Part shown: in pieces, positions 2,145 through 59,500 of the stretch
Position numbering within the stretch: position 1 is the stretch's first letter
Layout of the letters: every line of letters begins with the position of its first letter
NCBI GenBank assembly: GCA_021613535.1
Contig: CP075497.1
Coordinates: 9,820,585-9,884,584 of the forward strand
Direction: 5' to 3'
Length of the DNA stretch: 64,000 bases
Source: Adineta vaga
Taxonomy: Eukaryota > Animalia > Rotifera
The notes under the pieces: model-generated
Databases searched by the model: none
The model's input: the letters and a program-made list of their open reading frames with translations, nothing else
What the model was told of the DNA's origin: nothing
Program-made: the position numbers and the translations under genes

Positions 2145-7282
<5,138 letters not shown>

Positions 7283-8676: not shown

Positions 8677-10378
8677 ATGACTAACACAACTACAACAACG
8701 TCAAACGATATACCTGCATCCGATGAACCAACGGAATTAGATCTTGCTTTCATTATTGATGCAACAGGCAGTATGGGATCATACATCAAATCTGCTCAAG
8801 AGGTTAAAAAAATATATGAGAAATTATATTGGGTTTTTTAGTTATCAATATTATTGTTTAGAATATGAGAAAAATCATAGAAGATATTATTATAAGTGAA
8901 CGATGTTCATTGAATACAGCTTTAATTCTCTATCGTGATCATCCTCCACAAGATTCTACATTTGTTATCAAACTTCACGAATTTACAGATGATGCAGAAG
9001 AAGCAAAGAAACATATTGATTCAGCTTCTGCTAGCGGAGGTTTGTTATGAATAGTTTTATCTTTGAATATCTGACTGACAAGATAATGGGTTTCAGGTGG
9101 AGATGGTCCTGAAGCAGTAGCACCTGCTTTACATGCAGCTGTTCATACTTTATCATGGCGTAAAAATGCAATTAAAATTGCTCTTCTCATTGCTGATGCT
9201 CCTCCTCATGGACTAGGTGATGCAGGTGATGCATGGCCACAAGGTGAGAAATAGTTTTTCAAATTGTTTACAGAAAATTCACTCGAATTTTCTCTACAGG
9301 TGACCCATCAGGACATGATCCCATTGAATCTGTTACTCAACTTGCCGAAAATAGTATTACTTTGTATACAATTGGATGTGAACCAGGAATTATACCCTAT
9401 CGTGATTTTTTTATGGCTTTAGCCTTTAAAACTGGTGGTCAATATATCCCACTGAATAATTGCGATCACTTAGCTTCGATTATCATTGGATCTGCAAAAG
9501 AAGAAATTTCCTTAGAACGACTATTAGCACAAGTACATGAGGAAGTAATGCGTGAAGCTGCATTACGTGGTGGACCCGTTGATGAAACTGAATTGACTCG
9601 TCGCATCCATGAAGTCATGCAAGGTGGTGGTAAGTCGAAAATGAATTCATATTATCTACAAAAGAAATTGTATGTAATATCTTTACGAATAGGTGCCAAA
9701 GCACGACGAGTAAAAATAAACAATCAAGATGGTAGTATCAATATTCCACAAATAACACCTGCTGCGGAAGATCTTTCTAAATTAACAACATTAAAAGAAG
9801 TTCGAGAAAAATGGACTACTTCTTCATCAAAAACAACCTTATTTTCGACGCCTGCAGTAGGGTTTGGAGGATTATTTGGTACAACTGCAACAATTCCCAC
9901 ACCTCCAGCAGTATCATTCAAGAAAACTCGTAAACATATGACTGCACCGTCTTTGTAAGATCTCGGATATTCTATACCATTGTTTATACTTCATGATTCG
10001 ATTCTAGAAAGAAAACGGCACTAAAACGAAAAACACCACCAAAACCAGAACCTACTATCAAAAAGAAACCTAGACAAGATGTACCTCGTGGCAAACGACG
10101 AAGTACTCGTCTAATACTTAATAGAACGAATGATCAAGAAGATACAACCGATGAGGAGAAGATGGATGTAAGTTCATCGATTTATTATCATTTTTATTCA
10201 AAAACAATCTGATTAATTTTAGACAACATCGGTACCAACACCCCCTGTGACAAAACCAGCAAAGATAAAAACTGAAATATCACATATTGATTTAAAAGAT
10301 GATGAACTACTGGATATTAGTCAAACTCGACGACTTGTTCGTAAATGTGTGGCTCGAAATAAAATTAAATCCACTTAA
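8677..10378 (+). CDS. von Willebrand factor A (vWA) domain protein. About 7 exons with a Lys/Thr-rich C-terminal tail.
   Basis: A MIDAS-like motif LAFIIDATGSMGSY is followed by ILYRDHPPQD, GGGDGPEAVAPALHAAV and IKIALLIADAPPHG. These are characteristic of vWA domains of the vWKA/copine type. Splice junctions carry GT..AG. The tail ends RLVRKCVARNKIKST*. Confidence 0.7.
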
Positions 10379-11528: not shown

Positions 11529-13592
11529 TCAATTTGTCTGTTCACCTCGACAGATCGGACATCGAGTTGATGTCTAAAAAATAAGAATAAAAATCATGTT
11601 TATACATATGTTAGAAATAAAGAAATGAAATAGGCTGGTACCTTAAGCCATGGATCAATGCATTCACTATGGAAGAAGTGTTTGCATCGTAGATGTTTTA
11701 ATTTCTCGCCACCGATATATTCACTCAAACATACGGCACATTTATCATCAGCTTGAATATGTGTACAAGATTTTGTATAGATCATTGTTGGTAATCGTTC
11801 AAGTTCACTATCAGTTAGACCAACGACAGGTGTTTCATCGGGAATCGTTAGATCGAAAAAGTCCTAGATACAAACAGAAGATTATAGAAAAAGAGTTATT
11901 CATAGAAAAAAAAATGAGAAAACTTACACCAAATTGAATACTAAATGCAGCTGGTAATGAAAATATTTCATGACCAGGTGACATCCAGGCATAAGCAATT
12001 AAATCAATTGATGCTGTTGGTGGATGATGATGATGATGAAAATGATTATGAGTATCACTGTATGATGCGGCATGTGCATCAATGACACGACTAGAAAAGT
12101 TTTCAAAGACAGAAGAGAGTTACATTTTTGTTTCATGAAAAGATGGTGAATGGTAATACATACTGAAGTAGATCAGTAAGAAATGAAGGTGAAGGTCGTT
12201 GATGCAAATGAGTAGTCATCGATGTTCGATGAAAGAGTGGACCACGTTGTGGTGGCGTGGATTCGAATGGTATTCCACTTCGATGGTGGTGCTGCTGATG
12301 ATGATGATGAGGAGAAGGAAGATGATTTATTTGTTGTGTATAGGAAGAACGAGGAGGAGGTATTGGTTGACGACGAGGTAAAGCAACAGGTGGTGATTCA
12401 AGTAAAAATTGTTGATGATCAGGAGAATGGTATATATTACGAGGCTGTGCAGATGATGATGACGATGATGATAATGAGGGTTGTTGAATAGGAAGATGAT
12501 GGAGATCGTAATGTGTATTGGTATTATTGATATTATGTGCGTGTTCAATTCGATTTCGTTGCATCGGTTGTGTGCGTTGATCGAATGGTCGAGAAAGAGA
12601 AGGAATATTATCAATGTATGGTGTTCGGGGTATAGGATTTGGTTGTGGTTGTACATATCGATGATTTCTATACAATACAGATAAGAATATAGATTTTTAA
12701 AACAAAATTTTATACGTAAAGAAAAAAAATGAAATACTTACGTGTACGGTTGATAATGATGATGACTAGATGATCGATACTGTTGATTTTGTAGTTGCTG
12801 TTGAGAATGTGATGTATTCTCTTGTGAACGATGATTTGTTCGATCATTTTCATTATTAACTCCTTCATGTCTCGAACGCTTACGTTCATGATGATGATAT
12901 GACTGTGACGACTGAGATGCAGATGTACTAATCGCTGATGAACGTTGCCGTTTCGTATGATTATGATTATTATTGTTATTATGAGATGATCGTTGTGTTA
13001 TTGGATTGTTATTGTCTCGTTCATCGTCAAACCATGGTGGATGTCGTGTAAATGACGCTGCCGATGGACTTTCTAAACGATAATGACGATGATGTGGAGC
13101 TGATGCTGTTGTATTTGCTGCTGCCTAAAAAATAGTGACATTGATTAATTTATTTTAGACGAAATGTTACTAAAGAATAAAAAAAGAGTTTTTTTTACCG
13201 TCACAACATTCAATGGTAATAAAGGTCTAGTTGGTTCTTCTTCATTTGATTGCAAATAATGAATATGACATGATGGTTGAGATTCATCCCTCTGATGTAC
13301 ATGCGGATTCGTAGTTGTTTCACGATTTGATGAAAGTGACGAAGATTCAACTGTTTGACGATGAGGTGGATATTGAAAATAGGAAAAATCATTTTGTGTT
13401 GATAGAGACTGAGATGCAGAAGATGTTGTTGGTGGATGTATACAAGATAATGGATCTGTTAATTGCCAAGATGAACTATCTGATGATGTATCATTCGGTT
13501 GTGTTGTAGGATAAGAAACAAAGTCACACATTTGTAAAGATACACGATGACGAGATGGTATAAATGGACGGTTAGAATATTGGCGAGACATG
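11529..13592 (-). CDS. RING-H2 E3 ubiquitin ligase, RNF38/RNF44-like. The Pro/His/Ser-rich N-terminus and the C-terminal RING-H2 are split by an intron.
   Basis: The RING-H2 reads CAVCLSEYIGGEKLKHLRCKHFFHSECIDPWLK then (intron) TSTRCPICRGEQTN*. The long His/Pro/Ser low-complexity N-terminal exons (MSRQYSNRPFIPSRH...) match the RNF38/44 architecture. Confidence 0.75.
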
Positions 13593-14077
13593 TAATTCTG
13601 GATATGAATTAAGTACAAAAGACAAATAAATCTGTACAACCTTCCTGAATACTTCGTTCGATGTAATCAAAGAAGAAGAAGAAAGGCTATAAAGAGGAAG
13701 GTGAAAGAATGCAATGCACGTGGTGTCCATGATGTCGAATTGAATGACAAAATCGACCAATCATTTTTTAGCTATTCTTCATCATAACAATGCAAACTAG
13801 TGACCTCTAATGATCTTTCAAATGTCATTCTTTACTCATATAAATATGTACGATTTAAATATGTAGACGTGATACAAAGCATTTTTTCGTCATATGTTTA
13901 TAATAATACACTCGTGTAAGTTTCTTTTTTTTTGTTTCAATTTATTTCAAATATCACATTGTATGGAGAACATAGAATGATGCAGAAAAAGAATGTGTAG
14001 AATGATAATTTTAGTCAATTTATTCGAGTAAACGAAAAATAAGGATCAGTAATCACGACTGAAGAATGACGAACACA

Positions 14078-15268: not shown

Positions 15269-17980
15269 TTAATCGTCAGCATTCTCTTCATTCTCTTGAT
15301 TTTCCACTGTAGTTGTTGGTGTTGCAGAATCTTCACCAAGTAATTGACATAATTCGTTAAAACGCGACTGAATTTCTGGAACGCCAGCTAATTGAGCTTC
15401 CAATCGTTCTTTTTCACCTTTTAATGTTAAAAGTTTTTCGGTATTGAGTACTTCAAATTTCCATTTACCATCACCGTCAAATTGAAGTAAATGTGTATGA
15501 TAAGCCCTTGAAAATTGAAAGACAAATCTTTACTGAGAATAATTATTAATAATTTACTTACCATAGCGATGGTCGATGTGTAATTGTCAACAAGGATATT
15601 CCGAATCCTTTGGCTCGTTCATATATTTTACCTTCTACATCAATTGATACAGCACTTGTACATTCATCCAATAGAGCATAACGTGGTCGATGATAAAAGA
15701 TTCGTGCTAAACCAAGACGTTGTTTTTCCCCACCAGATAAAATATCCTTCCAATCACGTTCAGCATTTAAACCACCTTCACGTTGAACGATGTATTGTAA
15801 TTCAACATGATTTAGAACTTCCATTAGTTTTGTATCATCAACAAATGTATTGTCAACAGTATGTGGATAAATGATTTGATCACGTAATGTTCCAGGACAC
15901 ATATAAGGTCGTTGAGGAATGAGAAAGAAATTCGATGGATTTGGTCGATGAAGACGTCCAGAATAGATAGGCCATAGACCTCGAACAATACGAAAAAATG
16001 ATGATTTACCACAACCATTTGGTCCAGTGATAAGTACATGCATAGCCGGTGTAATCTAAAGAACAAAAAGGTCGAATCTTCTATTAAAAACAGTAGATAT
16101 TTGTTGTACTTTTAATGAAAGACTGTCAACAATAACATCACCATTGGGTGTAATAATTGGTACATTCTCGGCAATAATATCTTCATCAGATTCAATTATT
16201 CGACCTTCTATTAAAACGAAAGAGAACATGATCGAACTTGCTCTTTTCTACAATGATCTACACTGACCTGGACGTTGATTGACAGTAACCTTTCGTTTGG
16301 CAATTGTTGATGACGAATGTTCATTAGGATTTTCATTTGGTTCTACTAAAGCTCGTTGATAATGTTCATGTGCACAATCATCAAAAACATGAAGCATAGT
16401 ATAAACTCGATCTGTATGTCCTGCAAGTTCTGCAATCTAGATATAAAAACAATTTCTTCTTTAGTATTATCCATTATTGCACAATAATTCAATTTTACTT
16501 CTTTATACGATGAAATGATACGTTCGAGTGCATCAGCACCAGATGATAACAAATTTTTACTAACTGTAAACGCTTCTGTACGTGCGCTGATACCAAGTGG
16601 ATCTCCAACTGGATCTAAAAATAAATTTTTCATTCAATATTTATTCATTTCAAAGAAATCGCATTAACCATCGGTTTCTGCTGGACCATCATAGGTAAGA
16701 AAAGGTATAGCAATAAATACCATTCCGCCTAAATATAAAGAGATTTTGCACAAAGCAAAATACTTTTATCTAAACATACATGCATGCCAGAAATATTTCA
16801 TTAAAAACTGTTCAAGCATAATAAACCATAATTTTTTCTTAATAATTAAATTTGTTTGTTCACGTAATTGATCATATAATTTCAAAATCCAGTTTTTCTC
16901 AACCTATTATTATTATTATTATTTTCGTATCTATCTAGTTAATAAATGAAGAAAACGATCAAATGACATACTTGATGACCATCAAAAAAGGCAATTTCTT
17001 CAGCATTTGCAATAACTCTCGTATGTGCAAAACGAAGTACACCTCGTCGTCGTGCTTCTTCGGAAACAAGTTTACCGAATCGAGGTGATAGCTTTCGAAG
17101 TGCCATAAAAGTAACCAAAATAACAGCCATTGTCATGACGGGTACCTCTAAATGAAACGAAGAAAAGAATTTCATGAAGTTGATTGTATCGAATTACCTT
17201 TAAGACCTCGTGCTGAGTGTCGTTGTCGAACCATGGCAACAAGTGACCATGAAATAACAGCAATATCAAAAAATGGCTTAGTTAAATGTGAAAATAGATG
17301 AGTTAAGGTTGATGTAAATGTTTCAATATCATCAGTTAAATTTTGATCTGGTGTCAATAAACGACTATCCAAATTTGATACACGAAAATAGGTTTGATTC
17401 TAAAATTTATTATTTTGTAAACGAAAAAGTGACAAACGAACGTCAGTCTAAAACTTACTTGAAAATAGGCTTCATATGCATGACGTGTTAATTTAGTACG
17501 AAATGCTAGAGCAAGTTTTGATTCAGCATAACGAATTAAACTATTAATAAAACTAGCAGGAATAGAAACACCAACAAAGATACATATTGCACTAAGGAAA
17601 TTACGTGCATTTCGTTGTACTAAAGATTTAACGATAGCACCATCAAGATGTGCTATGTAAACTGATAGGAATGTTCGAGTAATCAATGTTGATAAATGAA
17701 GTATTAATATGAAAAATGAATCACTTTTTAGGTGTGGAATAAGAATACGAATTAATGTTCGAAGTTGATGAAAAAATCGTTTATTGAGTGCTTTACGAAC
17801 TAGTGATGATTGTGACGGTGATGCAGTATCATTAGTAGTGAGTTGCTCTTGTGGAATGATAAGTGCACGTCGTTTTTTCAATAAAATAGATCGACGATAA
17901 CGACGAATAAGATAGGCAATTAATGCAAACGATGATGAAAAAAGTAAAAGTTTTGTTCGACGAGATCTCAGCGAATACAT
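15269..17980 (-). CDS. ABCD: Peroxisomal ABC half-transporter, ABCD1/2/3 (ALDP/PMP70) family. Multi-exon.
   Basis: TM-domain exons give [52 protein letters not shown] and [31 protein letters not shown]. The NBD reads [25 protein letters not shown]...[40 protein letters not shown]...ITHRPSLW. The C-terminus [19 protein letters not shown]...ENADD* has its stop at 15269-15271. Confidence 0.9.
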
Positions 17981-18353
17981 GTTGTCAACTGAATGATATA
18001 ATCTACGGACTCGACTCCGTTTACGAACTTTACGATAAGGCGAACGGAAAGTTCTTCGTCCGCTGAATTATTTACTTTTGGTTGTCAATCAGCTGATTAA
18101 CTATCTGTTAATGGACGTAAAGTAACCAACAGCAAGTATTCATCAGATGTCATCCTATACAACATATAAACAAAATGTAGAACAAGAAAAAGAACATGAA
18201 AACGATTAGTATGTTAGAGAAATTTTATTATTAACAAGAAAAATGCAAATAATGCTAATTGAAATAGTAGAAGAGACCTATAAAAATATGTGTGAACAAA
18301 CAATATTAAGTTTTTCCATTCTAAATCTTGAAGAATTAAATTGTTTGAAAATA

Positions 18354-20310
18354 TCATTTTTCTCCAGATGAAGAATCACCTATTTGATCACTATTATCAT
18401 AATGACTAATTTGTTGATATTCACTAATAAGATCATTTAAACTTGCTTCTGCTAAACACGAAAAAAGACATTTGTAAATTAATTAAAAAAACATACATAT
18501 GAAAACTAAACTTACCATCAGTAAATTCGATATCATCCATCCTATATATCGAATTCAAAGAAAAAAGTTAAATTAATACATTTTTCTTTGCTATTAATTT
18601 ACCCTTCAGCTGTATACCAATGTATAAATGCTTTCCTTTTATACATAGCACAAAATTGTTGACAAATTTTTTTAAATAATTCTTCAATCGCTGTATTATT
18701 TGCTATAGAAAAAAAAATAACCGGAAATTAGTCTTTGCTATTGACTTTTATTAAGTAGATTATTTTACCAAGAAAAGTACAAGACATTCGGCATCCTCTC
18801 GGTGGAATATCACATACAGCAGTTTTAACATTGTTTGGAATCCATTCAATAAAATATTGAGAATTACGATTTTGTACCTGTAACATTTGTTCATCGATTT
18901 CACGCATTGATAATCGACCACGAAAGACTAGTGCTAATAAAAAACATTCAATATTATTCTATATAAACTGAATATTCGAAATTATGCTAACCAACAGTAA
19001 GATATCGTCCTTGTCTGGGATCTACAGCACACATTACATTTCGAGGATTAAATACTTGATGAACCATGTCCAAAACGGTTGTTGCTCGATAAGATTGACC
19101 ACTTCGTGATGTTAATGGTGCTAAAGATGACATAAAAAAATGTAAACGTGGAAATGGAACCATATTAACAGCGAGTTTTCTTAAATCCGCATTTAGTTGA
19201 CCTAAACATGTCACAAAGAGAGTGAGACGAATGAGGAATAGTGGTATTAGCTGATTTACCAGGAAATCGAAGACAAGTAGTAATACCAGACATAGTGTTA
19301 GCAATCAGATGATTGACTAAAATCAAAATTTTAATATGAATTACGTGATATTTCATAATCCACTACAGACGATCAATCATTGACGGAGTAGGAATTTTAA
19401 GTGACCGAGTACATATTTCATAGAGAGCTTCGTTATCAAAACATATCAACATATCTGTCGATTCAATATGATAATGAGCAGCAAGTAAAGCATTGTATGG
19501 TTCAACGATAGATTCAGATACTTGTGGCGATGGAAAAACACTATAAGCAACAATCATTCCTGAATATAAAAATAATACTACTATCATTTGAATTTGAAAA
19601 TCAACAAAACCATACGATCAGGATACTCTTCACGTAACCGATTTAATACAAGAGAACCAAGTCCAGAACCTGATCCACCACCAATACTTTGCATAATTTG
19701 AAAACCTAGTGAAAAAAAATGATTCTATAGATGTTTAAAATAGTTTGATTATTACCTTGCAAACAATCGGTATTTTCAACTTCTCGACGAACAGTTTCAA
19801 GTAGATAATCAATAGTCTCAGCACCTTCACCATAATATCCTAGAATGAAATATCTTTCACTATAAAATGATATAATATTCTTTGTTAGCAAACCTTTCGC
19901 CCAATTGTTGCCTGCTCCAGCTGTACCAAATACAAAATTATCTGGTCGAAACATTTGACCATAAGATGAAGCACGTACACAATCGATTGGACCCGTCTCA
20001 AGATCACATAAAACTGCTCGAGGAACATATTTACCACCTAAATTAATTATTACTTAGCATTCAGAAGACTTAATAAATGATAATGAAGTTTTTAGTACCT
20101 ATCGCTTCATTAAAGTAGACATTAATCCGTTCTAATTGTATATCAGAATCACCATCATAAATGCCAAGAGGAGAAAGACCATGTTCATTGGCCACAATTT
20201 CCCAAAACTAGAACATGACGAAGATATTTGAGAGTGTCATACCTTCTTATTACTTTTGCTGCGATCTGATTACCACATTGTCCAATGGAGATGTTCACAA
20301 TTTCACGCAT
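18354..20310 (-). CDS. Beta-tubulin, a divergent isotype. Multi-exon, with introns of 46 and 58 bp among others.
   Basis: [19 protein letters not shown] is followed by a 46-bp intron and [10 protein letters not shown]...[13 protein letters not shown]. Further exons give [28 protein letters not shown]...[29 protein letters not shown] then a 58-bp intron and [22 protein letters not shown], then [20 protein letters not shown] and the C-terminus [13 protein letters not shown]...GEK*. Confidence 0.9.
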
Positions 20311-23300
20311 TTTCTAATCAATTTCACTACTGCTTCTTTTTCTATTATTTGAAATGACAATGTCGAAACGTTGAAGCATGTATACATCTATCTAGATACA
20401 CTGGTTTATTGAAGAATCTAGATTAGGATAAATAGAAGAGACAAATAATCCATGTGCTTCTATGAACAATATAGAGAGAAATGTCTGATTGATGTAGTTC
20501 ATACACCCTCAACTAGAAAATAACTGTAATTTTGTTAGATTTTAGATGATGAGCGAGATCTTGAATATAAAAAACAACGCATCACTATCATAAATTAAAT
20601 GGTAAAAGGGCCAGTTGATTTTAACAATTGAACCATTTTGAGAATGTGAATGTTAGCGGCATGATTCTACTCACCCTTTTTCTGTCTATTTATTCATTCT
20701 TAGTTCTTGGATGACGCCATTATATATATATATATATGTAATCTTTACTCGTATACTCAAGAATCAAAGACGATATCTTTCTTTTATTTTAGTTTTTATA
20801 ACTTCAAATATAGGAATATTTTCTCATTTTAAGTTTTATTTAAATATTCTGTAATTCTTTCATGGTATTTCAATTCGTTTTTCATGATTCGACATAATGT
20901 TTTGTTAGAGAGATAGAATAGACGAAAATACATTTCATCTTAGATTAAAAACGTGCATTTTTGTATTTTGTATTGAAAGAATTTATATATCCAATGATAT
21001 CCAAAATTATCGACATATCATTATTTGATGTGTTTCATCTTTTATCAGAAAGGTACTGATAAAAGCTCCAGTGTAACTTATAATCAAATGCATCAAGCTT
21101 GTAATACATAACAAGCCATCACGTATTAATCTTACTCTTGTGATATTATTGTTTCATATTCATACGCATAACAATCAGCTTATGCATCAAGCCGTTCGTT
21201 GATATTTTTTTATCTTTTGTATACATATTTTTTGATAATGATGGTCAGAGAAAACTCATTAAATAAACAAAACTAAAATTATCTTTTTAGGAAAAGATGC
21301 ATTTACCGACAAGGTTGTCCAAAAACAAAACATGTAAAGAAAAACTAATATCAATGAAAGAGACAAGATACATATTAATAAATATAATAATTTAAAGGAT
21401 TATTTTTCAATTATCTAACTCATCGAATAATGTTTGGTAGAGTCAAAACAACGTTACTAGAACAAGAATTTTTATTCGAAGACAGATTACAATATTCGCA
21501 TGTCGATATTCCATAATAGAAAGACAACATAGATATTATGTTTGTCCCATTTTATTCAAAATAAAGCCGATACTAATAGTTAAAATAAAATATGTGCAAT
21601 TTACATAACGCAGCACGTATCTAAATTGTATCCTTGAAAGAAAATGCAAAGTCTAATATCTCACATGATACAATTTTGTCTGAAAAAAATTCCAGCACGT
21701 TTGATACTTCGACTTTGTACAAGGCATTACGATGATATCAGATAAAATTATAAATATTCTATGATTATCATCCTACGCAATACTAGTTTTTCTCACTCGT
21801 GATCAACAGTCTATAAATTGAGTGCGTATATCACAGTTTCTTCATATCAGTTCTCATCGTCGCAAAAAAAACATCCTCTTTTAATAAAGCAATACATTGT
21901 TTGCAACGATCATCCGTATCAGTAAGTAGAATAGCTAAACACTATTTTATCGTTATTCTGAAACTCTGTTATCAACGAATGAATAGACTAGTTAAATTTC
22001 TATAGTAACGAAGGTTGCATTACTTAGTAAATATAAAGTTTCTAGAAAATCAATACTAGAAACTGTGATTTATATCTTCGTGCGAATATTCTGACAATTT
22101 GAGGTCTAACTATAAAAATTCATTTTGCCAATATGCTTTTCCATTTGTTTAATTGTAGGAACGATAATAAAGATATTTTTGACCATACTTCTAATCACAG
22201 TGCGATCGAAACACAATACTAAACTGCGCAAGATTCAGTTTTCAATTATTTCCATCTTTCAAATCAACAATGATACTACTTCAGTCTTTTGGAAATTTGT
22301 TTCCATGCATACACATATCCAAGAACTCGGTGTGGAAACGGTCGATTCTATGGTATCCCTGTGATTAAATGAAACCAGTATTCAGGATCGGAAAATGTTT
22401 GCTTTTTTTCTGGTGTCCTCCAAACAATTATGGATTAGTTCCAAAAATCCAAATTATCGTCCTAGGTGAAAAATACCCTTGGATAAACAAGAGAACTTAT
22501 GGAAAAGGGATGCTTCAACGATAGCAATAGCAGAAATACAATACTAGAATCAAGTACATCCAACAAAAATCACACTTTTAAAATCTTATCAACAATATCT
22601 TGTTTATTCAACAGTGAACAAAATGGAAGTTAATCATGAATAGATGTGCTGCCAACAAAATCCAAAGTACAAAAAGAGTTTTACTGGCATGTATATGAAA
22701 TTATATTGGTTTGATAAGAAAGTACTTTTCTACTATTTACAGTGACTCAGTACGCACAGGATGGTACCTAACGAATCTCATACGAAAATAGAATCAATGT
22801 ACTTGCAAGGTATAGTGTATGGATCTTGATACCAAAAATGTTTAGTTAAAATTTCTTATAGTACAAAATCTCACTCGATCGAATAGCTTCCAGAATCAGA
22901 TCACACCAAAAAACGTCGTTGGAAATCCGACTATCGAGTTGATCGACCAGGAAATAAGTTGAAATCGTAAAAACGAATATCTTCATTAAACAAAAGTATT
23001 ATACAAAGCTTTGTTAATGTCATTAGCATTTCTTTTTGATTTTTGAAGGTTCAAATTTGGGTTTATAACGTAGATAACAAAACAAAATTATACTGTGACA
23101 TTAAACTGCTTAAAATCGACAGAAGCTAACCAATACTCCAGATCAATATATTTATTTTAAAGTTGACTCTTTCTCCACATTACATTTAATTAGTTAGAAT
23201 TTTTATTTTTCCACTGAAATACGTGGCATCAACGAGTCAGACTAAATGTACCGCGATTAATCAGCATGAAATCAGAATAATAGACTGTTTTTGAAGGCAA

Positions 23301-38233: not shown

Positions 38234-39836
38234 ATGATGACGAATAATAATAATATAGAAGATCAACGATGGAAATTATTAGATAAAGAACGATTTCAAA
38301 CATTTTTTGATTCCGATGGTCGTTTGGTGAAAGAACATGAATTTAGAAAAGCTGTTTTCAAAGGTGAGAGGTAGGTCTGAATATTAAATAAATTAATAAT
38401 CAGCATATATGTGAATAATAAAGATTAGCTTTTGTAGAAATATGTATGAGTTACAAGTCATCTTAATTTTTTACCCATTTTGAATACTAGTAATGATTCA
38501 TTTTTAATTATTTAGGCGGTATCAATAGTAATCTTCGGCCGCAAGCATGGAAATATCTTTTTGGTTTCTATCCACCACTTCTTTCTAAAACGTAAGATCA
38601 ACATTTTTGTTCAATTCGTTTTTCATGATTGTTTGTTTTCTCTTCATATTAGAGAACAAGAAACTATTGATGTTGAACGTAAATTATGTTATGATTTTAT
38701 GTGTGAACGATGTGAAAAAGAAATGCCAGAAGAACGTAAATTTGTACATTGACTACTTTTTCATCTTTAATTTTAATGTTACTTTAGTCCGTTCACAATT
38801 ATCGCATCTATCCGCAAATAAAGTTAAAGAACCTCTTAGTCCAAATGAAATATTCTTTTCTATTCAACAACGTATCGAAGCTTATAAACCTAAACTAAAT
38901 TGGAATGAAATGGATCGTCATGTTCGACTTATTGCTAAAGATTTACACCGAACTGATTTTATATCATCGGAAAAACGACCAGATAATTATAATTACGGTC
39001 CATTAACACGTTTACTTGTTGCATTTGCTTCTTATCATCCGAATATCGGTTATTCCCAAGGTATTCTTGTTCTAAATTATACAAAAGACGTGTTTAATAT
39101 TTTATATTTGTTAGGTATGAATGATATGGCTCATTGTTTTCTACATGTATTTTCTTTCAATGAACATGAAGCTTATTTCTGCTTTGCTTATTATATCACA
39201 CAATCGGGCGAACATTTTACAGAAAAAGGTATCGCACATAAAATAAAACAATTGCCGAAACTAGTGGAAATTGTTGATCAATTATTATATGATCGAATAT
39301 TATCACTCAATGTTGAATTATGGACATTTTGTCATCGTATGTACTAATGTTATTGCTCATGATTTAATAATGATTTTTTGATAGGATGGTTATTTTTATG
39401 TTTTCGTCGTGAATTTGCTGAAGAAGAAGATACATTGATATGTTTCGAAGTAGTTTGTAGTCATTTTCTTGAAGAAAATTCATTAGCTGCAGAACGTCTT
39501 CTTCATGATATACAATTGAGACGAGCAGAACAAAAAGGTATCAGTAGTTATTCATCATCAATATCAATGGAAGGACATTCCAAATCGAATGAAGAACTTG
39601 GATGTTCATTCGACTTATTCGTTTGTATTGCAATGATATCATTATTTCGTTCATGTTTATTCGATGCTAATGATGAACTTGAAGCTTTGGAAGCCATTCA
39701 ACAACGTCAAAAAACACTCGATGTTCGACAAGTTTTATCATTAGCAGAACAACTTTTTAAAATATATTGCCTACAAATGACATCAATGACAGCTCCATCC
39801 ACAATTGAAACATCATCTTATGAAATCATTGATTAA
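38234..39836 (+). CDS. TBC-domain Rab GTPase-activating protein, TBC1D15/16/GYP7-like. About 6 exons.
   Basis: The first exons give RWKLLDKERFQTFFDSDGRLVKEHEFRKAVFKG and GGINSNLRPQAWKYLFGFYPP, which carries the TBC Arg-finger context. Later exons give IAKDLHRTDF...YGPLTRLLVAFASYHPNIGYSQG (the YxQ motif), MNDMAHCFLHVF and WLFLCFRREFAEEEDTLICFEVVCSHFL. The stop is at 39834-39836. Confidence 0.8.
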
Positions 39837-40030: not shown

Positions 40031-40758
40031 CTAAGAAACAGCAACATCTGTTTCATTGGAATTGTTTTCAAGTAATTCAGTAACTAAAACTTCATTATGT
40101 CGATTGATTAGTTTCATGGGCATATCATAAGTTGCTGAAATCACTTCTTCACGATTAATTGGGAATGTTTTACACAGTTCTAATATATTTTTACTTTCAC
40201 GTTTCCAATCTGCTTCTTTGGCAAAACCACCAAAACGTTTGGCATAAAAAATTTGTTCGACTTGTTGATAGATATAAACACCCTCAACAGTTGGTATTGG
40301 TGGTGAATTTTTATGATTATCTTTATCAAGTATTAACAATAATGTAAATCGATTTTCTTGATTATTTGTCAATGATGGACGAACTATTACCATAATTGGA
40401 AGACACATTTTTAATGTTTTACCTTTTGGGGAAAAAAGCCATTTCTATTTATTTAAATTCAAAAACTACGATAGTTTACCATCGACATTTCCACCTTGAG
40501 TATACTTAACCAATTTCCATAGATTTGACATAACAGGTTCATCACCTACAGTAGCAGTAAATGTATACGCAGCACATGTGAATGGATCATATCGACGTTT
40601 TTCATAAGTCTAATCATTTGATGAGAAGATTTCATTCAAAAAATTATTTGTGAAATGACATACAATACCTTATTACTTTCGATAATATCATATTTCGGCC
40701 ATTCTGGATCCGCAGTTACATTTGAATAGGCTGATGCAGCTGTTCGTAACCAATTCAT
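40031..40758 (-). CDS. HEBP: SOUL/HEBP heme-binding protein. Three exons.
   Basis: The N-terminal exon MNWLRTAASAYSNVTADPEWPKYDIIESNK is followed by TYEKRRYDPFTCAAYTFTATVGDEPVMSNLWKLVKYTQGGNVDG. The last exon reads KTLKMCLPIMVIVRPS...IYQQVEQIFYAKRFGGFAKEADWKRES...YDMPMKLINRHNEVLVTEL. This matches HEBP1/2 (FGGYAKEADY; YDPPMKPYGRRNEVW). Confidence 0.8.
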
Positions 40759-42099: not shown

Positions 42100-42860
42100 T
42101 CATCCATCACCACAACATATTCCTCCACACATATCTAAGATAGAACAACTTATACTGCGTAGCATTGTAAACCCACCCGTTTTCTAAAAGTTCCTGCTGC
42201 GAAGCCTATCCTTCTTCTAACCAATCTCGTTCTAACTCTGTCTCTACTTCAGTTCGGACCTAAAAATCTTAAATGCCGGATTAAAGATTCATCTGTCGCG
42301 AATACATACACGTCTATAATAAAGCACGATAGTAGAACAGATATTGTGTGGGATGAGTATCTTTCTTCTGAGTCGCCCTCACTTTCGTGTTACACAACCA
42401 GACCAGTGCGAAAACGTAGTAAGAGATGGATACTCTAAAAGATCGATCTAATCAGTTAGTTGAAATTAGATTAAATTTCAACCACCTTCCCTCTTACTCT
42501 TTCGAAACTTTTCTCTGTACATACGGAAGTATCATGGACAGTTTGGCATCCATACCTATGACGTAATCACCTGGGTGAACTCCCCCCTCCTACCCCAGAC
42601 ATAACCTCCTAACCTTCCTCCCTCGTCAATATCGTCAATCCTCTCTCAACCTTCCATCGAACTTAGAGTATTGCCAGAAGAAGTTTGATAACATTAACTA
42701 CCACAGGACTATCTGGATGAAATTTCACCCACGCTCCCTCCCTCTTCCGATGACCATACCAACTCTCTGTCGACCTTACCTGCGATTTAAGCTACCAGCG
42801 TGAAAATGTTCGTGACGCTAGCTATAACAGGGACTGAATGCATAACGAACAGACCGACAA
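42100..42860. other. A roughly 0.8-kb strand-asymmetric C/T-rich tract, with higher GC and no ORFs, immediately upstream of the intronless ART gene. Possibly a transposon remnant, a lncRNA, or foreign DNA.
   Basis: Runs such as cccacccg, cccccctcctacccc, cctcc and ccctccctcttcc occur on the plus strand only, with local GC about 45% against roughly 30% in flanking DNA. The tract ends in an (AT)n(GATA)n microsatellite at 42875-42900. Confidence 0.4.
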
Positions 42861-43248
42861 ACATTCTTCTTCATATATATATATATATTGATAGATAGAT
42901 AGAACATAGTTGCCACAAAATGAAGAACTGAGAAATTTTACACATTAGGAAATAACGATGTTCATGATTCCGCGAACGAGCTATTAGTGTATCTCGATTG
43001 CCGATATTTTCAAGTTAAACGGTTGTTTGAATGAATTCATGCATATATTACTAATAATTCATTTTATTGATAAAATACATGTGATAGGAGTTTCAGTTTT
43101 GTGAAGAATAAAGTATTGTCTTCTTATGAACTCCGTGTTTTGTAGATAATAATCACTTCTGTATTAATAGTGAAAATTAGAACAGTTAGTAATTACCGAT
43201 TCCACGCATTCCTTTACAACACGCTCGTATTTCGACTATTATACATAA

Positions 43249-44025
43249 ATGGCTACTGCATCAGATTCAACTACTCATACCAAAAGTCGCTTTCTGGATG
43301 CTAACAAAGAAGACTTGAAAGAACTGATGCCGTTAAAAAGTTTTGATGATGTTCCTCTTCTCCCATTGGGAGAATCTGTTGAGAAGTTGGACAAGTTGCA
43401 TAAGGATCTTAAGCTTATGATAGATGTTGCTCTTAAGAGATCTAAAGATCCAGCTGACAATCTTAATGAAGACCAGTCAGCCGCTATCTGTCTTTATACA
43501 ATGGAAGGTAATTCACCGGGCTGTAATCTTTACTCACTACTGAATGCGACGCTTCGCAATCCAGATCGAACACAACTCGAATCTTGGTATCCATACTTAA
43601 AACTGATACTAACGGCTCTATATACCTTACCATCGATCAGTACGACAGTTTGGCGAGGAGTACGTAAAGATCTATCCCATAGATATAAACGTGGTGAAGA
43701 TATTACGTGGTGGGCATTTAGTTCGTGCACAACTTTGATTGATGTTTTAGAAGATGAAAAGTTCTTGGGCACATCAGGAGAACGTACACTGTTTGCAATT
43801 GAATGTTGTAGTGGAAAAGAGATTAAACGTCATTCCTATTACTCTTTCGAAAAAGAAGTCTTACTCCTTCCAACTACACATTTGAAAGTACTCGGTCAGT
43901 TCAAATGTCAAAATGATATGTATATTATTCATTTACGTGAAATACCAACACAACCACTTCTCATAAGAAACATATTATGTGAACAACCGAGAAAGCCAAC
44001 TCCCTCTCTACTGCCCATAAGGTAA
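43249..44025 (+). CDS. Mono-ADP-ribosyltransferase of the R-S-EXE (ARTC, C3/cholera-toxin-like) clade. Intronless, 258 aa, no signal peptide.
   Basis: The ORF carries the ordered ART motifs. They are AICLYTMEG..NLYSLLNATLR (YxxxN..LR), TVWRGV (catalytic Arg), WAFSSCTT (STS-type motif) and YSFEKEVLLLP (EXE in the EEEVLIP context). An in-frame TAA sits one codon upstream of the ATG. Coding GC is about 40% against roughly 30% locally. Confidence 0.8.
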   Translation: MATASDSTTHTKSRFLDANKEDLKELMPLKSFDDVPLLPLGESVEKLDKLHKDLKLMIDVALKRSKDPADNLNEDQSAAICLYTMEGNSPGCNLYSLLNATLRNPDRTQLESWYPYLKLILTALYTLPSISTTVWRGVRKDLSHRYKRGEDITWWAFSSCTTLIDVLEDEKFLGTSGERTLFAIECCSGKEIKRHSYYSFEKEVLLLPTTHLKVLGQFKCQNDMYIIHLREIPTQPLLIRNILCEQPRKPTPSLLPIR

Positions 44026-46026
44026 AAAGATTATCAAAGGTCTCTCTCATTGTTTCAGTATGATTCGTCAAAAAAAGAAAATAGTCTTGTTAGTTAAAAG
44101 TATCTAAGAAAAATTAATGCGACAGTGGTTCATCGACACTTTAGGTAAACAAGGGTACAGCAAACCATGAAAAAATTGGTTCAACCCGCCTGTATAAAAG
44201 TTGAGCGTGAAGTGGGCCTATCCAATAAATCTTACTCAGTCCTATCCGAGCACAAGGCATGTTAAAATTCAGAAAGATTACTTTTCCACGACGTAGAAAC
44301 AATATTTCTGAAAGAAAAATTATATTGTTCGGTGTATTTATCAAACGAATGCGATGTGTTGCAAACTTTTTTGCACTAAATATCGATCATTATACAGAGC
44401 TCGATATCGTTGACTAAAGCACGTTTTGATAAAGCTAATATATACGAAATACAACATATTTCTGCATAAGCGATTTCTTATTCAGTTCATCCTCTTCTCG
44501 AATGCAGTACAGCCAAAAATACTCTAAGCACAAAAAATCGCTTTTCATCTCAAATTAAATGATACTGTTGTTTCTTTGTAAATATTTTAACTGTTATAGA
44601 TAATAAAATTTCGAGTTCTTTTGATTTTTTGAAATGGTGAATTTTTTGTTTGCATAAGTAGATTTTCGTTGGACCATACACGATCTTATTCCATTCCATT
44701 AAGTCAAAAAGAGATTATTGCAAGGAAATGATGTAAAGGTCATAGAAACATCCTGTTTTCATATAGTAGTATATTTCGTTGGTTAAAATCGTCATGAATC
44801 AAACTTAAACAGGGACCTGTAGTTCATAATATACTCTTTATAACATCAATAACGAGACTTTATTTTACAAAGTGTTTCGATCGAATTTATTTGCGTACTA
44901 ATTAGTATAAATAATATATTACAAAATAAAAGTTGTAGATGACAGATGTGAATACTAGTATATATCGTATCAGCTGAATCGATAGTCGTATCGGTTTCTT
45001 ATGAACAGCTATGTCCAATACTTCTGCCATTTATTCGATCATAGATTTCGAAAAAAAAATTGAAAAAATCATATAAACATTGAGCCGGGCAAACTATCCG
45101 AATAAGTAGTCTATTTTGAGCCCTGCAAAGAACAATTAAAACACAAAAAAGAACAGAAACAAATGCCTTATATATTTATGCAAGATAGAAGCGAACCGAA
45201 GAATCGATTTCCATAACAAGAAAGCAATTATCATCAAGCAGATTTTTGATAGTTAAAGATTATGAAGAAACCTTAGGCTAACTTCTGAAAAGACATTTGA
45301 AAACATTTTCGAAAAAAGTTTCCCTGGTTGATCGTAAACTTAATTTAATTAAGCTGAAATCGATAGTAACATAGAATTAGACTTCTACTTTATATCGAAT
45401 TTGAAAAGTATTCTGAGTGAGCAGTGATCTAGTTAGAGTAAGACAACTGGATATTGTCCCACCACTGATTTTAGCGTTGATACATCCTCTTGATGTCAAA
45501 ATTTTAGTCATACTTCTATATGTTAAGTATTCTTCTTTGAGCCATCATGACTAGAGAACTCAGAAGTTTTGCTGCCGAACGCGTCTCATAAAGTTACTTT
45601 CTTACCTTGATGACAAAGCTTTAAACGTAAAAACAGTTTTTTCCTATAGGTAATTATTTATCTGATAGAAACAATAACAAGAACAATCTGACGAAAGTAG
45701 CTTTGAATAAAAAAATGCTAAACTTAGAAGCACAATAAAGCCATTTTATGCGTCATATCGTTCGATAATCACTGTAAAAATATTTTATATTTTCTGAAAC
45801 AAGGAAAAGAACACTTTTCATTTTGGAAAATGATTTCACCAAGATGTGGCTAGAAAGTAATTCTTATCCTATCGAGTAATTACTTATTTAGTAACTGTGT
45901 TTATATAATCTATGCGGAGAAACAGAAGAAAGAACCTACTATCACTACTAAGAAATTTTTACTTTAATGAATGAATGGATGAAAAAGTCATTCTTTCCTC
46001 AATTTATTTTTTCTTCCTCGCTCTAG

Positions 46027-47017
46027 TGTAACTCATGAACAATGGACGTCAACAGCACTAACAGTGGCTGGAGGTCATGGATACGGACAGCAACTGAATC
46101 AATTTTCTTACTGCTATGGCATGTGTGTTGACAGTGATGGAGCTGTCCTTATCGCTGATTTAAAAAATCATCGTATCGTGGAATGGAAATTTGGTGCAAC
46201 CAGTGGCCAAATAATCGCAGGAGGGCATGGAGAAGGAAGTGAACCGGATCAATTGAATAAACCAACAGATGTCATTTTCGATCACGAAAGAAACAGTATT
46301 CTGATTTGTGACAGGGGAAACCGACGAGTTGTACGCTGGCCCCGCCAAAATGGAAAGAGATATGAAATGGTAATCGAAAATATCGATTGTGGGAATCTAG
46401 CAATGGATAATTATGGTTTTCTCTATGTCACGGACACGCAGAAAGATAAAATAAGGCGATATCAACTGGTAGGAAACAGTTTTCGCTCAGATTATAAAAC
46501 CGTAGCAGGTGGTAATGAAGAAGGTAAAGGTCTCAACCAATTCAATGGACCAGCTTGTTTGTTTGTTGATTGCAAACAAACGGTATACGTTTCAGACAAA
46601 GGAAATAATCGTGTGATGAAATGGGTGAAAGATGCGACGGAAGGAATTGTTGTGGCCGGTGGTGAAGGAAAGGGAAATGGGTTGAGGCAACTGAATAATC
46701 CTCTAGGATTGTTCGTCGATTTAAAAGATAATATCTATATTGTTGATAGTGGAAATCATCGGATTGTATGCTGGAGCAAAAATTCCGACGTTCGTGTAAT
46801 TCTAGGAGGAAATTATAGTAGAAATTTAGAGCACGGTTTGAATGGCCCTACAAGTTTGGCAGTTGATAGTTTTGGTAATCTTTATATCTATGAATCTGAA
46901 AATCATCGCGTTCAACGGTTCGCTGTCAAGAGTGTATCCAATCCACAAGCTAATATTGTACCGAGTAAGGAAAATGTGTGGTTTAAGAAATTTGGAGTTG
47001 ATAGAAGAGTAATATAA
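46027..47017 (+). CDS. NHL-repeat six-bladed beta-propeller protein (paralog 1). This is the main exon; a short 5' exon is inferred but not located.
   Basis: Six NHL repeats carry G..G.G..QLN.P.gl.vD and blade-terminal motifs HRIVEW, RRVVRW, IRRYQL, NRVMKW, HRIVCW and HRVQRF. The reading frame is open upstream to a strong acceptor (ttttttcttcctcgctctag at 46026) with no in-frame ATG, which implies an upstream exon. Confidence 0.75.
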
Positions 47018-48142
47018 AGCAAGTATTGAGACGTTAAGGAATTCTTTTCTGATTCAAAAAGGTCCGATACAATTAAAATTCTATTTTGAATAATTACAAA
47101 TCCATGTTTTAATGGGACGATACATTTTTCCACCTCCATATCTATGGCAAGTATTGCAGTATTAGACGTAGAGTTCTGTTCAACGGACATCATGGATCGC
47201 AGTAAAGCTGCCTCATTAAAACGCGCAATGATCCAACTTTTAAGTGTGTTGTATCGTTGATATAGTAAGCCTAAAATACACGCTCTCTTGAGTAAAAAAA
47301 TAAAAGCAATCCTACTATTACACATGAATTGTATATCTCATCATTGTCAAAAAATAATGTTTCTAACCATAAAACTTAGTAAAACTACCACTGTTGTAGG
47401 CATTATATAGCAATGCATTAAGTAAGTATATCGAGATTTAACAGTTAGTTCAAATACATATATACTCTATCATGGGAATAGAATATGTATCAATTATAAA
47501 CAGTTCATATTAGCAGTATGGCTAGTTTCCATTAGATCGAACTCGATCATATACGTGGTTCGTATTTGATTTTGAAATGAGTATCAATCGAAAATATCTT
47601 ATGAACAGATTTCATTCTTTTCTCCACTAGCCGCCAGTTTTCGTTGTAGAAAGCATCAATTGTAATCGTCGATACTCCAGAGAATAGAATGCTCTTGGTA
47701 AGATGCCACAGTAAAATTGTGTTGGAAATTGCCAAAAATGATGCATTTCTTATCATCTTTCCAGGCACGTTACTTCAGCTATTGTAAAACAGTCTGAAAA
47801 TAACTTTTACATGTAAGCTAAGTTCGAAAAAGTTAATAATATTAGTCATATTAGACTTGAATTAAATTAAATTAAATTATGAGTTACAATTTACGTTAAA
47901 GTACCTAAAATAATCAAATAGTGGTTTTGAGTTTTATATGAAACTCCATTGATTGTTTGTTTGTTTGCAGTTATAGATATTTTCTATTTAAATTCTTTCT
48001 GATCGTATCTACCAACCTAAACCATTATTCGTTAAAATGATATATGAGTAAACATTGAATGATTGTCAAACGCGAAAAAAATTGTTTCTATTCAGCAAAT
48101 AAACATTCATTCTCTATTCGATACGTATTCCTTCTTCTTTGC

Positions 48143-49067
48143 AGATCCAACGCCTAAAGTACCTTCTATTAAATGGAAATCACTTGGAGTCACAGTAGCT
48201 GGAGGACATGGTTCTGGTAGCCAATTGAACCAACTTAACCAATGTTATGGTCTCTTTGTCGACGACGATGGAAATATTCTGATCGCTGATAGTGGTAACC
48301 ATCGAATTGTGGAATGGAAACCTGGTGCAACGAATGGGCAAGTAATAGCTGGTGGAAAAGGAAAAGGAGCCAATATGAATCAGTTGAATTGTCCAACATC
48401 TATTGTTGTCGATAAAAACACAAATAGTCTCCTCATATGTGATTCACATAATCGTCGAATTGTTAGATGGCCACGCCGACAAGGTCAAGTAGGATGTACA
48501 GTTGTAGCTAATATCGATTGTTATGGATTAGCTATGGGCAAAGGAGGTTGTCTGTATGTCACAGACATTGAGAAGAACGAAGTTAGGTGTTATCAGTTGA
48601 AGCAGAACTATTCAGTCCTGACTGTAACTCGCGTGGCAGGTGGAAATGGAAAAGGGGACAATCTTAATCAACTGGATCGTCCTGATTACCTCTTTGTCGA
48701 TCAAGATGATACGATATTTATATCGGATACAGACAATCATCGTGTTATGAAATGGACGAAGGGTAAAAATCAAGGTGTTATTGTTGCTGGAGGTAAAGGC
48801 GCTGGGAATAATCTCGAGCAATTATGTCAACCTACTGGGTTGTTCGTTAATTCATTCGGTACGATATATGTTGCAGACTCTTCAAACCATCGTGTGACAC
48901 GATGGCATGGTAAACAATCAGACTTAATTGCTGACGGAACTATTGATGAAAACGGAAAAAATCACCCGTTCCATCCCGAGGGTTTGGCCGTTGATCGACA
49001 TGATAATTTGTATGTAGCTGATTGGAAAAATCATCGAGTTCTACGGTTCGCAGTTAGATCAGAATAA
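48143..49067 (+). CDS. NHL-repeat six-bladed beta-propeller protein (paralog 2). Main exon; a 5' exon is inferred.
   Basis: This copy is roughly 50% identical to the upstream paralog. It reads AGGHGSGSQLNQLNQCYGLFVDDDGNILIADSGNHRIVEWKPG..., with HRIVEW, RRIVRW, VRCYQL, HRVMKW, HRVTRW and HRVLRF. The acceptor is ttccttcttctttgcag at 48142. Confidence 0.75.
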
Positions 49068-58602: not shown

Positions 58603-58951
58603 TTTTCGAATTTGTCGAGGTAAACGTCTACGTCTTTGATGTTCAATAGATAGTTTGATAAATTTAAAAGCAAGATAACTGAGATTGAGTATAAAAATTA
58701 AACAACATGAAATATATGCAAAATTAATCGAACAACTTTCATCCATTCCATTGTTGAAATTAATTTGATTGAAGTAGGAAAATATTAATTGTTAAATGAG
58801 CAAATCATATATAAACAATAAATAATAACAACAACACAAATCAGCTGACGAGTTCTGTATCGCGTCTATGCAGTCATGTTACAAGATGGCGTACGAATCG
58901 CTCTAACGAATCGATTTTTTTCCTGTTCTTCATCTTCTCTTCTTTGTCATC

Positions 58952-59500
58952 ATGTTGTTGAATATATTCTTGAAAAAACGTTTTCTACATGGAAGAGCTG
59001 TATCAACAATTGAATTGACACGAAATGCTATTGCAAATAAACCACTTCAATGGAATGATTTAATCCAATGGCTACAAGGTGGACAAAAAACGTTACTTTG
59101 GCGAGATGAACAATGTGCTGAACGATATATTCAACATCAAAAATTAGTTTCAAGAGATTATCGATCAATAAATGATTTTATTCGTATACATTATCTTAAA
59201 TGGAATTTTGATATCGATAAAAAGACTGAAAAACGTATTGCTATTTCAAGTTCAAATTCAATTAAAGAACCATTATTAACTCCCAATGATTTTCCATATT
59301 ATTTAGTTTCAGGAATTCAACATTGGGTTATATGGTGTGATCCAATACCGAAAATACCTGAAGAAATTATTGAAAAGATTATTGCAAAAAAATTTCCCTA
59401 TGAAAAATTTGATAGTCTTAGTTTTGTTAATCCACCACGTTTGAGATCTGTTTCTGATGTCTTTCATGCACATGTGTTTACACGAAAGAAAAATGAATAA
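58952..59500 (+). CDS. Small intronless conserved-looking protein of 182 aa, DUF3605-like. The family assignment is tentative.
   Basis: A single ORF contains IQHWVIWCDP and FVNPPRLRSVSDVFHAHVF. From memory these resemble HW(V/I)LW and NP..R.SV..HxHV motifs of a fungal/eukaryotic DUF family. No AG acceptor lies near the ATG. Confidence 0.45.
   Translation: MLLNIFLKKRFLHGRAVSTIELTRNAIANKPLQWNDLIQWLQGGQKTLLWRDEQCAERYIQHQKLVSRDYRSINDFIRIHYLKWNFDIDKKTEKRIAISSSNSIKEPLLTPNDFPYYLVSGIQHWVIWCDPIPKIPEEIIEKIIAKKFPYEKFDSLSFVNPPRLRSVSDVFHAHVFTRKKNE

Follow-up and report, generated by a model that had tools for sequence, protein, structure and literature searches.

A toxin-like ADP-ribosyltransferase reading frame of Adineta vaga, probably the first exon of an ART–NHL–NHL gene from a large bdelloid family

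Was a short toxin-like gene of the rotifer Adineta vaga captured from a foreign source, or is it a piece of a larger animal gene? The question is raised by an open reading frame (ORF) located on the plus strand, at positions 43249–44025, of a 64,000-nucleotide stretch of the genome (assembly GCA_021613535.1, contig CP075497.1, positions 9,820,585 to 9,884,584 of the forward strand), which was analysed as a whole and is called the window below. An earlier note, made from the letters of this DNA alone, had described the ORF as a stand-alone, intronless and recently acquired or mobilised gene for a mono-ADP-ribosyltransferase (ART). The enzyme class proved correct, and the ORF belongs to a very large family that has expanded in bdelloid rotifers. 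The best explanation overall, which we hold to be likely, is an ART–NHL–NHL gene of that family encoding a predicted cytosolic protein of 877 amino acids (aa).

The ORF runs from ATG to TAA over 258 codons with no interruption in the window sequence. An in-frame TAA stands directly 5' of the ATG; there is therefore no upstream acceptor, as the earlier note had remarked, and the frame cannot be extended in the 5' direction. The initial methionine was invariant across the 27 ART–NHL proteins of alignment A3, one of three family alignments (A1, A2 and A3) comprising 27 to 44 homologs. The catalytic motifs of the R-S-ExE type were all present in the order described in the note: LYSLLNATLR (Y95, N99, L102 and R103), VWRGV (R136), FSSCT (157–161) and FEKEVLLLP (E201-K-E203). 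The codons of the main catalytic residues were located as follows.

43654–43656, plus strand: codon R136 (CGA), for the arginine that binds NAD in the R-S-E triad; without variation in A1 and A3.
43723–43725, plus strand: codon S159 (TCG), for the serine that opens the S-T-S-equivalent S159-C160-T161; without variation in A2 and A3.
43849–43857, plus strand: codons E201-K202-E203 (GAA AAA GAA), the ExE motif of the ADP-ribosylating toxin turn-turn (ARTT) loop, with E203 as the catalytic glutamate.

E203 did not vary in A1 and A3 and reached at least 90% conservation in A2; E201 did not vary in A3 and reached at least 90% in each of the other two alignments. The first glutamate of ExE, represented here by E201, is the residue associated with arginine specificity in ARTs; the asparagine-specific C3 enzymes possess Q-x-E in place of E-x-E.

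The ORF is of the R-S-ExE mono-ART class at the sequence, structure and motif levels. The Pfam ART profile PF01129 matched residues 65–232 with 54.4 bits, above the gathering cut-off of 22.3 (E-value 1.4e-14), and it also matched 40 of the 41 relatives scanned. Against the sequences of the Protein Data Bank (PDB), phmmer retrieved the Vis toxin (9e-5) and rat ART2.2 (0.017). In the alignment to Vis and rat ART2, R136 fell on the catalytic arginine, S159 on the first serine of the S-T-S motif and E201/E203 on the ExE or QEE glutamates. A profile built from 44 homologs gave values of 5e-11 for Vis, 1.4e-8 for Tre1, 2.8e-6 for HopU1 and about 1e-5 for ART2. The AlphaFold2 model of the ORF, built on the homolog alignment, had a predicted local distance difference test score (pLDDT) of 89.8 and a predicted template-modelling score (pTM) of 0.85. 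It displayed the ART fold, in which a helical region at the N-terminus accompanies a split beta-sandwich. The triad of the class, an arginine on beta1, a serine of S-T-S on beta2 and a glutamate of the ARTT loop on beta5, is represented in this order by R136, S159 and E203, as aligned with Vis and ART2. The top Foldseek matches listed against the PDB were all R-S-E ARTs (HopU1, Tre1, Vis, XopAI, ART2.2, C3 and ExoS/T), with a probability of 1.00 and, for the first five, E-values of 2e-11 to 2e-9. Because the Pfam, profile, fold and conserved-residue results agree, the ORF can be assigned to the class proposed in the note, that of the cholera-toxin, C3 and ecto-ART enzymes. Catalytic activity and arginine specificity would follow by analogy with established ART biochemistry.

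The profile and fold searches supported a position nearer to the bacterial arginine-specific toxins and effectors than to the vertebrate ecto-ARTs, the former outranking vertebrate ART2 in both. The best-ranking matches by structure and by profile, namely Vis (Vibrio splendidus, 4xzj), Tre1 (type VI secretion system of Serratia, 6drh), HopU1 (type III secretion system of Pseudomonas syringae, 3u0j) and XopAI (6k94), have the same fold and the same R, S-T-S-like and ExE residues, and arginine mono-ADP-ribosylation would be expected by analogy with them. They are only about 20–24% identical to the window protein, and the XopAI NCBIfam model scored 17.9 against a cut-off of 300 bits. These bacterial proteins are secreted or injected, whereas the window protein shows no secretion signal and is predicted to come from a spliced animal gene and to bear NHL propellers. 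The vertebrate ecto-ARTs (ARTC; rat ART2.2, 1gxy) belong to the same Pfam family, above the gathering cut-off, and share the fold at about 20% identity. The window protein differs from them by ExE in place of the QEE of ART2, by its predicted extra NHL domains, and by the lack of the vertebrate-type signal peptide and glycosylphosphatidylinositol (GPI) signal. The AACRNL paper (PMC12957317) was considered as a parallel and set aside, the ART described there being diphtheria-toxin-like and of another class.

The lack of export signals agrees with the earlier note. The highest Kyte-Doolittle mean over 19 residues was 1.15; the 258-aa ORF has no hydrophobic stretch and therefore no signal peptide, transmembrane segment or GPI-like tail. 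The first 30 residues averaged −0.80, corresponding to a hydrophilic N-terminus, and the last 25 averaged −0.26. The protein is predicted to be intracellular, most simply cytosolic.

Two NHL-repeat ORFs were identified by Pfam on the same strand, at 45983–47014 and 48063–49064. Both start right after a polypyrimidine tract and an AG (TTTTTTCTTCCTCGCTCTAG and TTCCTTCTTCTTTGCAG, respectively). The first in-frame ATG is found no earlier than codon 32 in the first ORF (NHL1) and codon 77 in the second (NHL2), in both cases inside the propeller. The stop codon of the ART ORF sits within a consensus 5' splice site, CCCATAAG/GTAAAAAG (the slash marks the junction), and a second strong donor, CCGA/GTAAGG, is present just 3' of the last NHL blade of the first propeller. 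From these signals we propose a gene of three exons and about 5.8 kb whose exon 1 is the ORF, a multi-exon reading that we consider probable. It is organized as follows.

43249–44021, plus strand: predicted exon 1, with the start codon, the full ART (R-S-ExE) domain and a Pro/Thr/Ser-rich linker, ending in phase 2 at the donor AAG/GTAAAA.
44022–46026, plus strand: proposed intron 1, 2005 nt, from GTAAAA to TTTTTTCTTCCTCGCTCTAG, with an in-frame junction.
44023–44025, plus strand: stop codon TAA of the ORF, coinciding with nucleotides +2 to +4 of the proposed donor GTAAAA; it would end translation only in transcripts that keep intron 1.
46027–46964, plus strand: predicted exon 2, a complete six-bladed NHL propeller (NHL1; Pfam NHL 95.5 bits), ending in phase 1 at the donor CGA/GTAAGG.
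46965–48144, plus strand: proposed intron 2, 1180 nt, from GTAAGG to TTCCTTCTTCTTTGCAG.
47015–47017, plus strand: alternative stop codon TAA, used if intron 2 is unspliced, for a 587-aa ART–NHL product.
48145–49067, plus strand: predicted exon 3, a second six-bladed propeller (NHL2; Pfam NHL 114 bits) and the stop codon TAA at 49065–49067.

The joining of 43249–44021, 46027–46964 and 48145–49067 is in frame twice, in phase 2 and then in phase 1, and gives a coding sequence of 2,634 nt for 877 aa; the second junction is in frame because the donor and acceptor of intron 2 are both phase 1. In the translations, each NHL exon contained six N[HR]R[IV]..W blades, which makes one complete propeller per exon. 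NHL2 was 52% identical to NHL1, and tblastn alignments with homologous ART–NHL genes gave 45–51% identity between the NHL exons. The proposed introns use the best donor consensus in each region. Intron 1 contained no open frame longer than 62 aa and intron 2 none longer than 56 aa, and neither showed similarity to a family protein. A tblastn search with 117 NHL-family proteins and 430 retrieved proteins revealed no alternative 5' exon for the NHL ORFs in the putative introns or in the flanks (E≤0.01). Unless joined to the ART exon, the NHL exons would lack a start. The GC content at third codon positions (GC3) of all three exons was 0.29–0.30. Poly(A) hexamers were visible after all three candidate stops, an uninformative observation in an AT-rich genome. 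Direct splicing of ART to NHL2 is also possible, from a phase-1 donor at 43978 (TAT/GTGAAC); this candidate was rejected, as the donor has a weak consensus and nothing supports its use.

The same organization was observed in homologous genes. Several ART–NHL proteins had already been retrieved using the ART sequence alone. The 587-aa ART–NHL1 product was covered over 93–96% of its length, in a single local alignment each, by dozens of named Rotaria and Adineta proteins of 540–620 aa. Residues 13–874 of the 877-aa model aligned with residues 2–894 of protein P0224 (Rotaria magnacalcarata, 898 aa) with 41.8% identity. In the P0224 gene, a 1,732-nt intron separates the ART exon from the first of two NHL coding blocks, which lie approximately 0.8 kb apart, the second junction being not mapped exactly. 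In the gene for P0236 (Rotaria sp. Silwood1, 585 aa) the ART and NHL exons are separated by a 1,986-nt intron, in that for P0240 (Adineta steineri, 560 aa) by an 822-nt intron, and the first intron is 1,474 nt long in that for P0081 (R. magnacalcarata, 573 aa; named 'NAD(P)(+)--arginine ADP-ribosyltransferase' in UniRef). The homolog genes possess a single intron of 0.8–2.0 kb in the ART–NHL linker, and the layout of one domain per exon with long linker introns is found in the window as well, where the GT..AG-bounded gaps measure 2005 and 1180 nt. The bdelloid ART–NHL(–NHL) proteins are thus similar to the predicted product in domain order, length, ART catalytic residues and six-bladed NHL propellers, with 40–47% full-length identity. 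They differ in that the best match, at 42–45%, is not ortholog-level, and no neighbouring gene of the window was seen at the 7 ART-only and 4 ART–NHL homolog loci.

An exhaustive HMMER scan of 1.84 billion cluster representatives returned 3,789 relatives of the ART at E≤1e-3 and 445 at E≤1e-30, many of them 400–1,350 aa long. Among the matches listed, every named relative was from a bdelloid rotifer (Rotaria spp., Adineta steineri or Didymodactylos carnosus), and the best of these bdelloid relatives were 50–54% identical. In 41 sampled members, the ART was fused to LRR (11), NHL (4) or TPR (3) domains, and single fusions to kinase, ubiquitin, small-GTPase/AIG1, MACPF and FG-GAP domains were found. 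Close relatives of the NHL module also occur behind other N-terminal domains, one being named in its source as DED-domain-containing and two as RRM-domain-containing. Members of the family would thus share one ART module, carried by a separate exon and linked over unusually long introns to NHL, LRR, TPR or other exons. No published description of a bdelloid ART–NHL family was found in the literature searched; such proteins are already present in public databases under automatic names and are apparently unstudied. Read in this way, the locus is an additional member of the database-known ART–NHL type.

A tblastn search with the ART revealed no paralog in the window. At the locus L006 of Adineta steineri, a second ART paralog (19735–20388, plus strand), 35% identical to the window ART, lies 9.7 kb 3' of an ART-only gene; family members can therefore cluster. 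At the locus L008 of Rotaria sp. Silwood1, the ART–NHL gene is flanked by a gene combining HSP70 and ART (1–926, minus strand) and by a gene combining U-box and small-GTPase domains (9134–10334, minus strand), which adds to the unusual ART fusions.

The composition of the ORF had been given as a sign of foreign origin. Its GC content of 38.6–38.8%, close to the value of about 40% called atypical in the earlier note, was within the range of the other exon-like frames of the window (25.5–39.8%, median 33%), the window itself being at approximately 32% GC. GC3 was indeed raised: 0.295 against a mean of 0.178 (standard deviation 0.042) in 36 other likely-coding frames, a z value of about 2.8. At this GC3 about 71% of the codons end in A or T, which contradicts the claim of mainly G/C-ending codons. 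Family exons in other species were also raised relative to their neighbours, with GC3 values of 0.38 against 0.07–0.16 in L006, 0.22 and 0.40 against 0.12–0.16 in L008, and 0.34 against 0.17–0.25 in a further homolog locus, L004. The raised GC3 is common to the family, the three predicted exons included, and is therefore no mark of local or recent acquisition.

A second argument for a foreign island had been a C-rich tract on the 5' side of the ORF, which is real.

42100–42860, plus strand: C-rich non-coding tract with 27.5% C, a higher value than in any other 760-nt stretch of the window (mean 15.7%, standard deviation 2.7%).

The tract lies in a divergent intergenic region of 2.5 kb, between the SOUL gene (40031–40758, minus strand) and the ART start. 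ORFs of 50 aa or more, Rfam matches and copies in the window or at the homolog loci were all absent, and the sequences 5' of seven homologous ART exons showed nothing equivalent. Within the tract, a weak repeat recurs at a spacing of 247 nt (42469 and 42716), and an (AT)8/(ATAG)n microsatellite at 42873–42903 marks the 3' edge; there was no other tandem array. The tract may be a promoter, 5' untranslated sequence or the relic of something else; no observation connects it with the gene or with a foreign source.

Among prokaryotic sequences, the closest relative found was a protein of a Polyangiaceae metagenome-assembled genome (MAG), 32% identical over residues 14–231 (E-value 3e-37). It is encoded at 2029–3675 (plus strand) of the locus and comprises 548 aa, with an N-terminal region of about 320 aa without Pfam match followed by a C-terminal ART; the gene adjoins a peptidase M15 gene. 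The aligned part includes the N-terminal helical region, and the protein shares with the rotifer family the signature motifs (DE[SA]AAIxLYT, WRGV, WW.xSSCT and ExE..L.PGT). It differs from the window gene by its bacterial context, a different N-terminal partner and the absence of an NHL domain. With the best bacterial relative only 32% identical, an ancient bacterial origin of the whole family is possible and, given also the rank of the bacterial arginine-specific toxins above vertebrate ART2, plausible. In a Verrucomicrobiaceae MAG, an ART fused to a protein-isoaspartate methyltransferase (PCMT) was observed at 2710–4371 (plus strand), beside a cytochrome P450 gene (1167–2516, plus strand); this ART–PCMT fusion may be eukaryotic contamination.

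Several observations weigh against the three-exon gene. The splice junctions are deduced from sequence and homology only, and the comparison drew on Rotaria and Adineta gene models that were themselves predicted automatically. The phase of intron 1 is 2, compared to phase 1 in four annotated homologs; the sole AG available for NHL1 is phase 2, and the exact position of the intron is therefore not conserved, though it falls in the same unalignable linker. With its 2 kb, this intron exceeds by a factor of about 40 the gaps, of roughly 50 nt, that separate adjacent exon-like frames elsewhere in the window. The relatives closest to the ART, at 50–54% identity, are short ART-only or ART-plus-coiled-coil forms, compared to 44–47% for the ART–NHL proteins. 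Genuine ART-only genes exist: homologs of 246–284 aa have single-exon annotations, with no donor overlapping the stop and no NHL exon within 10 kb. The enzymatic activity, the arginine specificity, the binding role of NHL and the immune function discussed below are likewise all predictions by analogy. The intron phase, the closer short relatives and the genuine ART-only genes, together with an ORF that is complete from ATG to stop, would suit a stand-alone, single-exon ART-only gene of 258 aa, the NHL ORFs being orphan exons, pseudogene relics or parts of other genes. We regard this as rather unlikely. It leaves aside two intact six-bladed propellers without start codon or other 5' exon, each behind a strong acceptor, and two in-frame junctions at the best donors of their regions. 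The joined product, moreover, is colinear and length-matched with many ART–NHL proteins and with one ART–NHL–NHL protein of the same gene layout. The multi-exon and ART-only readings are not fully exclusive. Retention of intron 1 or of intron 2 would give an ART-only (258 aa) or an ART–NHL (587 aa) product; in the former case the result is precisely the 258-aa ORF, since the donor includes the TAA. The word intronless of the earlier note thus holds for the ORF itself and probably fails for the gene, in which the TAA lies within AAG/GTAAAA and two NHL exons very probably follow.

The origin proposed in that note, a recently transferred or mobilised toxin gene, pierisin/CARP-like or derived from bacteria or phages and accompanied by the C-rich tract, finds some echo in the raised GC3, in the bacterial toxins and effectors that are the closest solved and profile relatives, in the motifs shared with the myxobacterial MAG protein and in the unusual tract itself. 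It is nevertheless hardly credible, and the data do not support an acquisition that would be recent or isolated. The nearest relatives are bdelloid, with no match listed under another name, and the family, thousands of members strong, shows spliceosomal introns, eukaryotic domain partners and a raised GC3 that extends to other species. The ART had no match among the PHROGs phage protein profiles or the PADLOC anti-phage defence profiles; in these scans, the NHL exons matched the profile PD-T4-6 weakly, a repeat-level similarity. No transposon-like repeat or terminal repeat was found flanking the gene. No pierisin-type entry occurred among the 50 Foldseek rows listed or the 7 PDB profile matches, with no direct comparison made, and Pfam found no ricin-B domain in the ORF. 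What is left of a transfer is an ancient event at the root of the family. A decaying or non-functional member, either an ART exon with a premature stop or an unexpressed relic of a tandem array, also has to be considered. Pseudogenes are expected in a family so huge and of such quick turnover, the exact ART protein is absent from public collections, and NHL2 has no ART exon of its own. This explanation appears very unlikely in view of three reading frames intact over 258, 344 and 334 codons in a genome of 32% GC, where stops are frequent, of all the catalytic and structural invariant residues being kept, and of consensus-like splice signals.

For the protein of the three-exon gene, the following mechanism can be proposed. 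The ART domain, with its intact R136, S159 and E201-x-E203 set, would bind NAD+ and transfer a single ADP-ribose to arginines of a target. The ExE-class ARTs, such as Vis, Tre1, HopU1, ART1 and the iota-type and CT-type toxins, mono-ADP-ribosylate arginine. The NHL propellers would constitute the recognition module for a target or ligand and might position, gate or release the enzyme in the cell; NHL propellers are generally platforms for the binding of proteins, RNA or ligands. The least certain step is a possible role in innate immunity or another conflict, suggested by the association of an effector with a variable repeat architecture, the thousands of rapidly diverging paralogs, the toxin ancestry and the DED- and RRM-named NHL relatives. 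A functional analogy, and only that, may be drawn with the NLR and TRIM-NHL innate-immune sensors, which also combine an effector with variable repeats (LRR, NHL or TPR), lineage-specific expansion and rapid divergence; unlike them, the window protein has no NACHT/NB-ARC, TIR, RING or B-box domain. More tentatively still, and as a possibility that we would not call likely, the family might be a combinatorial, intracellular sensor-effector system of bdelloids with arginine ADP-ribosylation as its output, in which a toxin-derived ART exon would have been shuffled onto NHL, LRR and TPR exons. At loci with one ART and two NHL exons, regulated intron retention could then supply ART-only, ART–NHL and ART–NHL–NHL isoforms, and the whole would amount to an NLR-like repertoire for immunity derived from a bacterial toxin domain of ancient acquisition, of which no account was found in the literature searched.

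The other genes recognized in the window are of eukaryotic type. In addition to the SOUL heme-binding gene, they include an exon of an ABCD-type ABC transporter (17357–18067, minus strand), a RabGAP-TBC gene (38589–39344, plus strand) and a DUF3605 gene (58907–59497, plus strand), with short inter-exon gaps and low GC3. The named best matches of the ABCD exon were also from bdelloids, with 55–76% identity. Between 26373 and 30547 (plus strand), exon-like frames of 176, 475, 133, 263 and 188 codons without Pfam match apparently form a large uncharacterised gene, with very low GC3 (0.10–0.19) and a mostly high GC content at second codon positions (0.41–0.61). The segment 11900–12700 was the strongest G-rich stretch of positive GC skew in the window (skew +0.46, G up to 28.6%); it overlaps a group of minus-strand exon-like frames, at 12136–12696, 12741–13124 and 13148–13666, for which no Pfam match was found. 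Inside intron 2 and on the opposite strand, a sub-threshold Rfam match to SNORD108, of the C/D-box snoRNA type (47309–47375, minus strand; 33.2 bits against a gathering score of 46, E-value 0.0024), was probably due to chance.

The finding matters mainly as a correction: the apparent foreign toxin gene without introns makes better sense as exon 1 of a modular animal gene, and its compositional foreignness is a property of the whole family and not a sign of recent transfer. In stress transcriptomes of Adineta vaga, the Gene Ontology (GO) term 'protein ADP-ribosylation' was enriched (PMC12220480, PMC10809525), and the first of these studies discusses the enrichment in terms of PARPs. The large PF01129 family may drive such ADP-ribosylation GO enrichments in A. 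vaga. Taken singly, the gene is ordinary. The family, with thousands of cytosolic ExE ARTs bearing NHL, LRR or TPR repeats, each domain on its own exon, and with exceptionally long introns in a short-intron genome, could be of interest for the study of invertebrate immunity and of the domestication of bacterial toxin domains.

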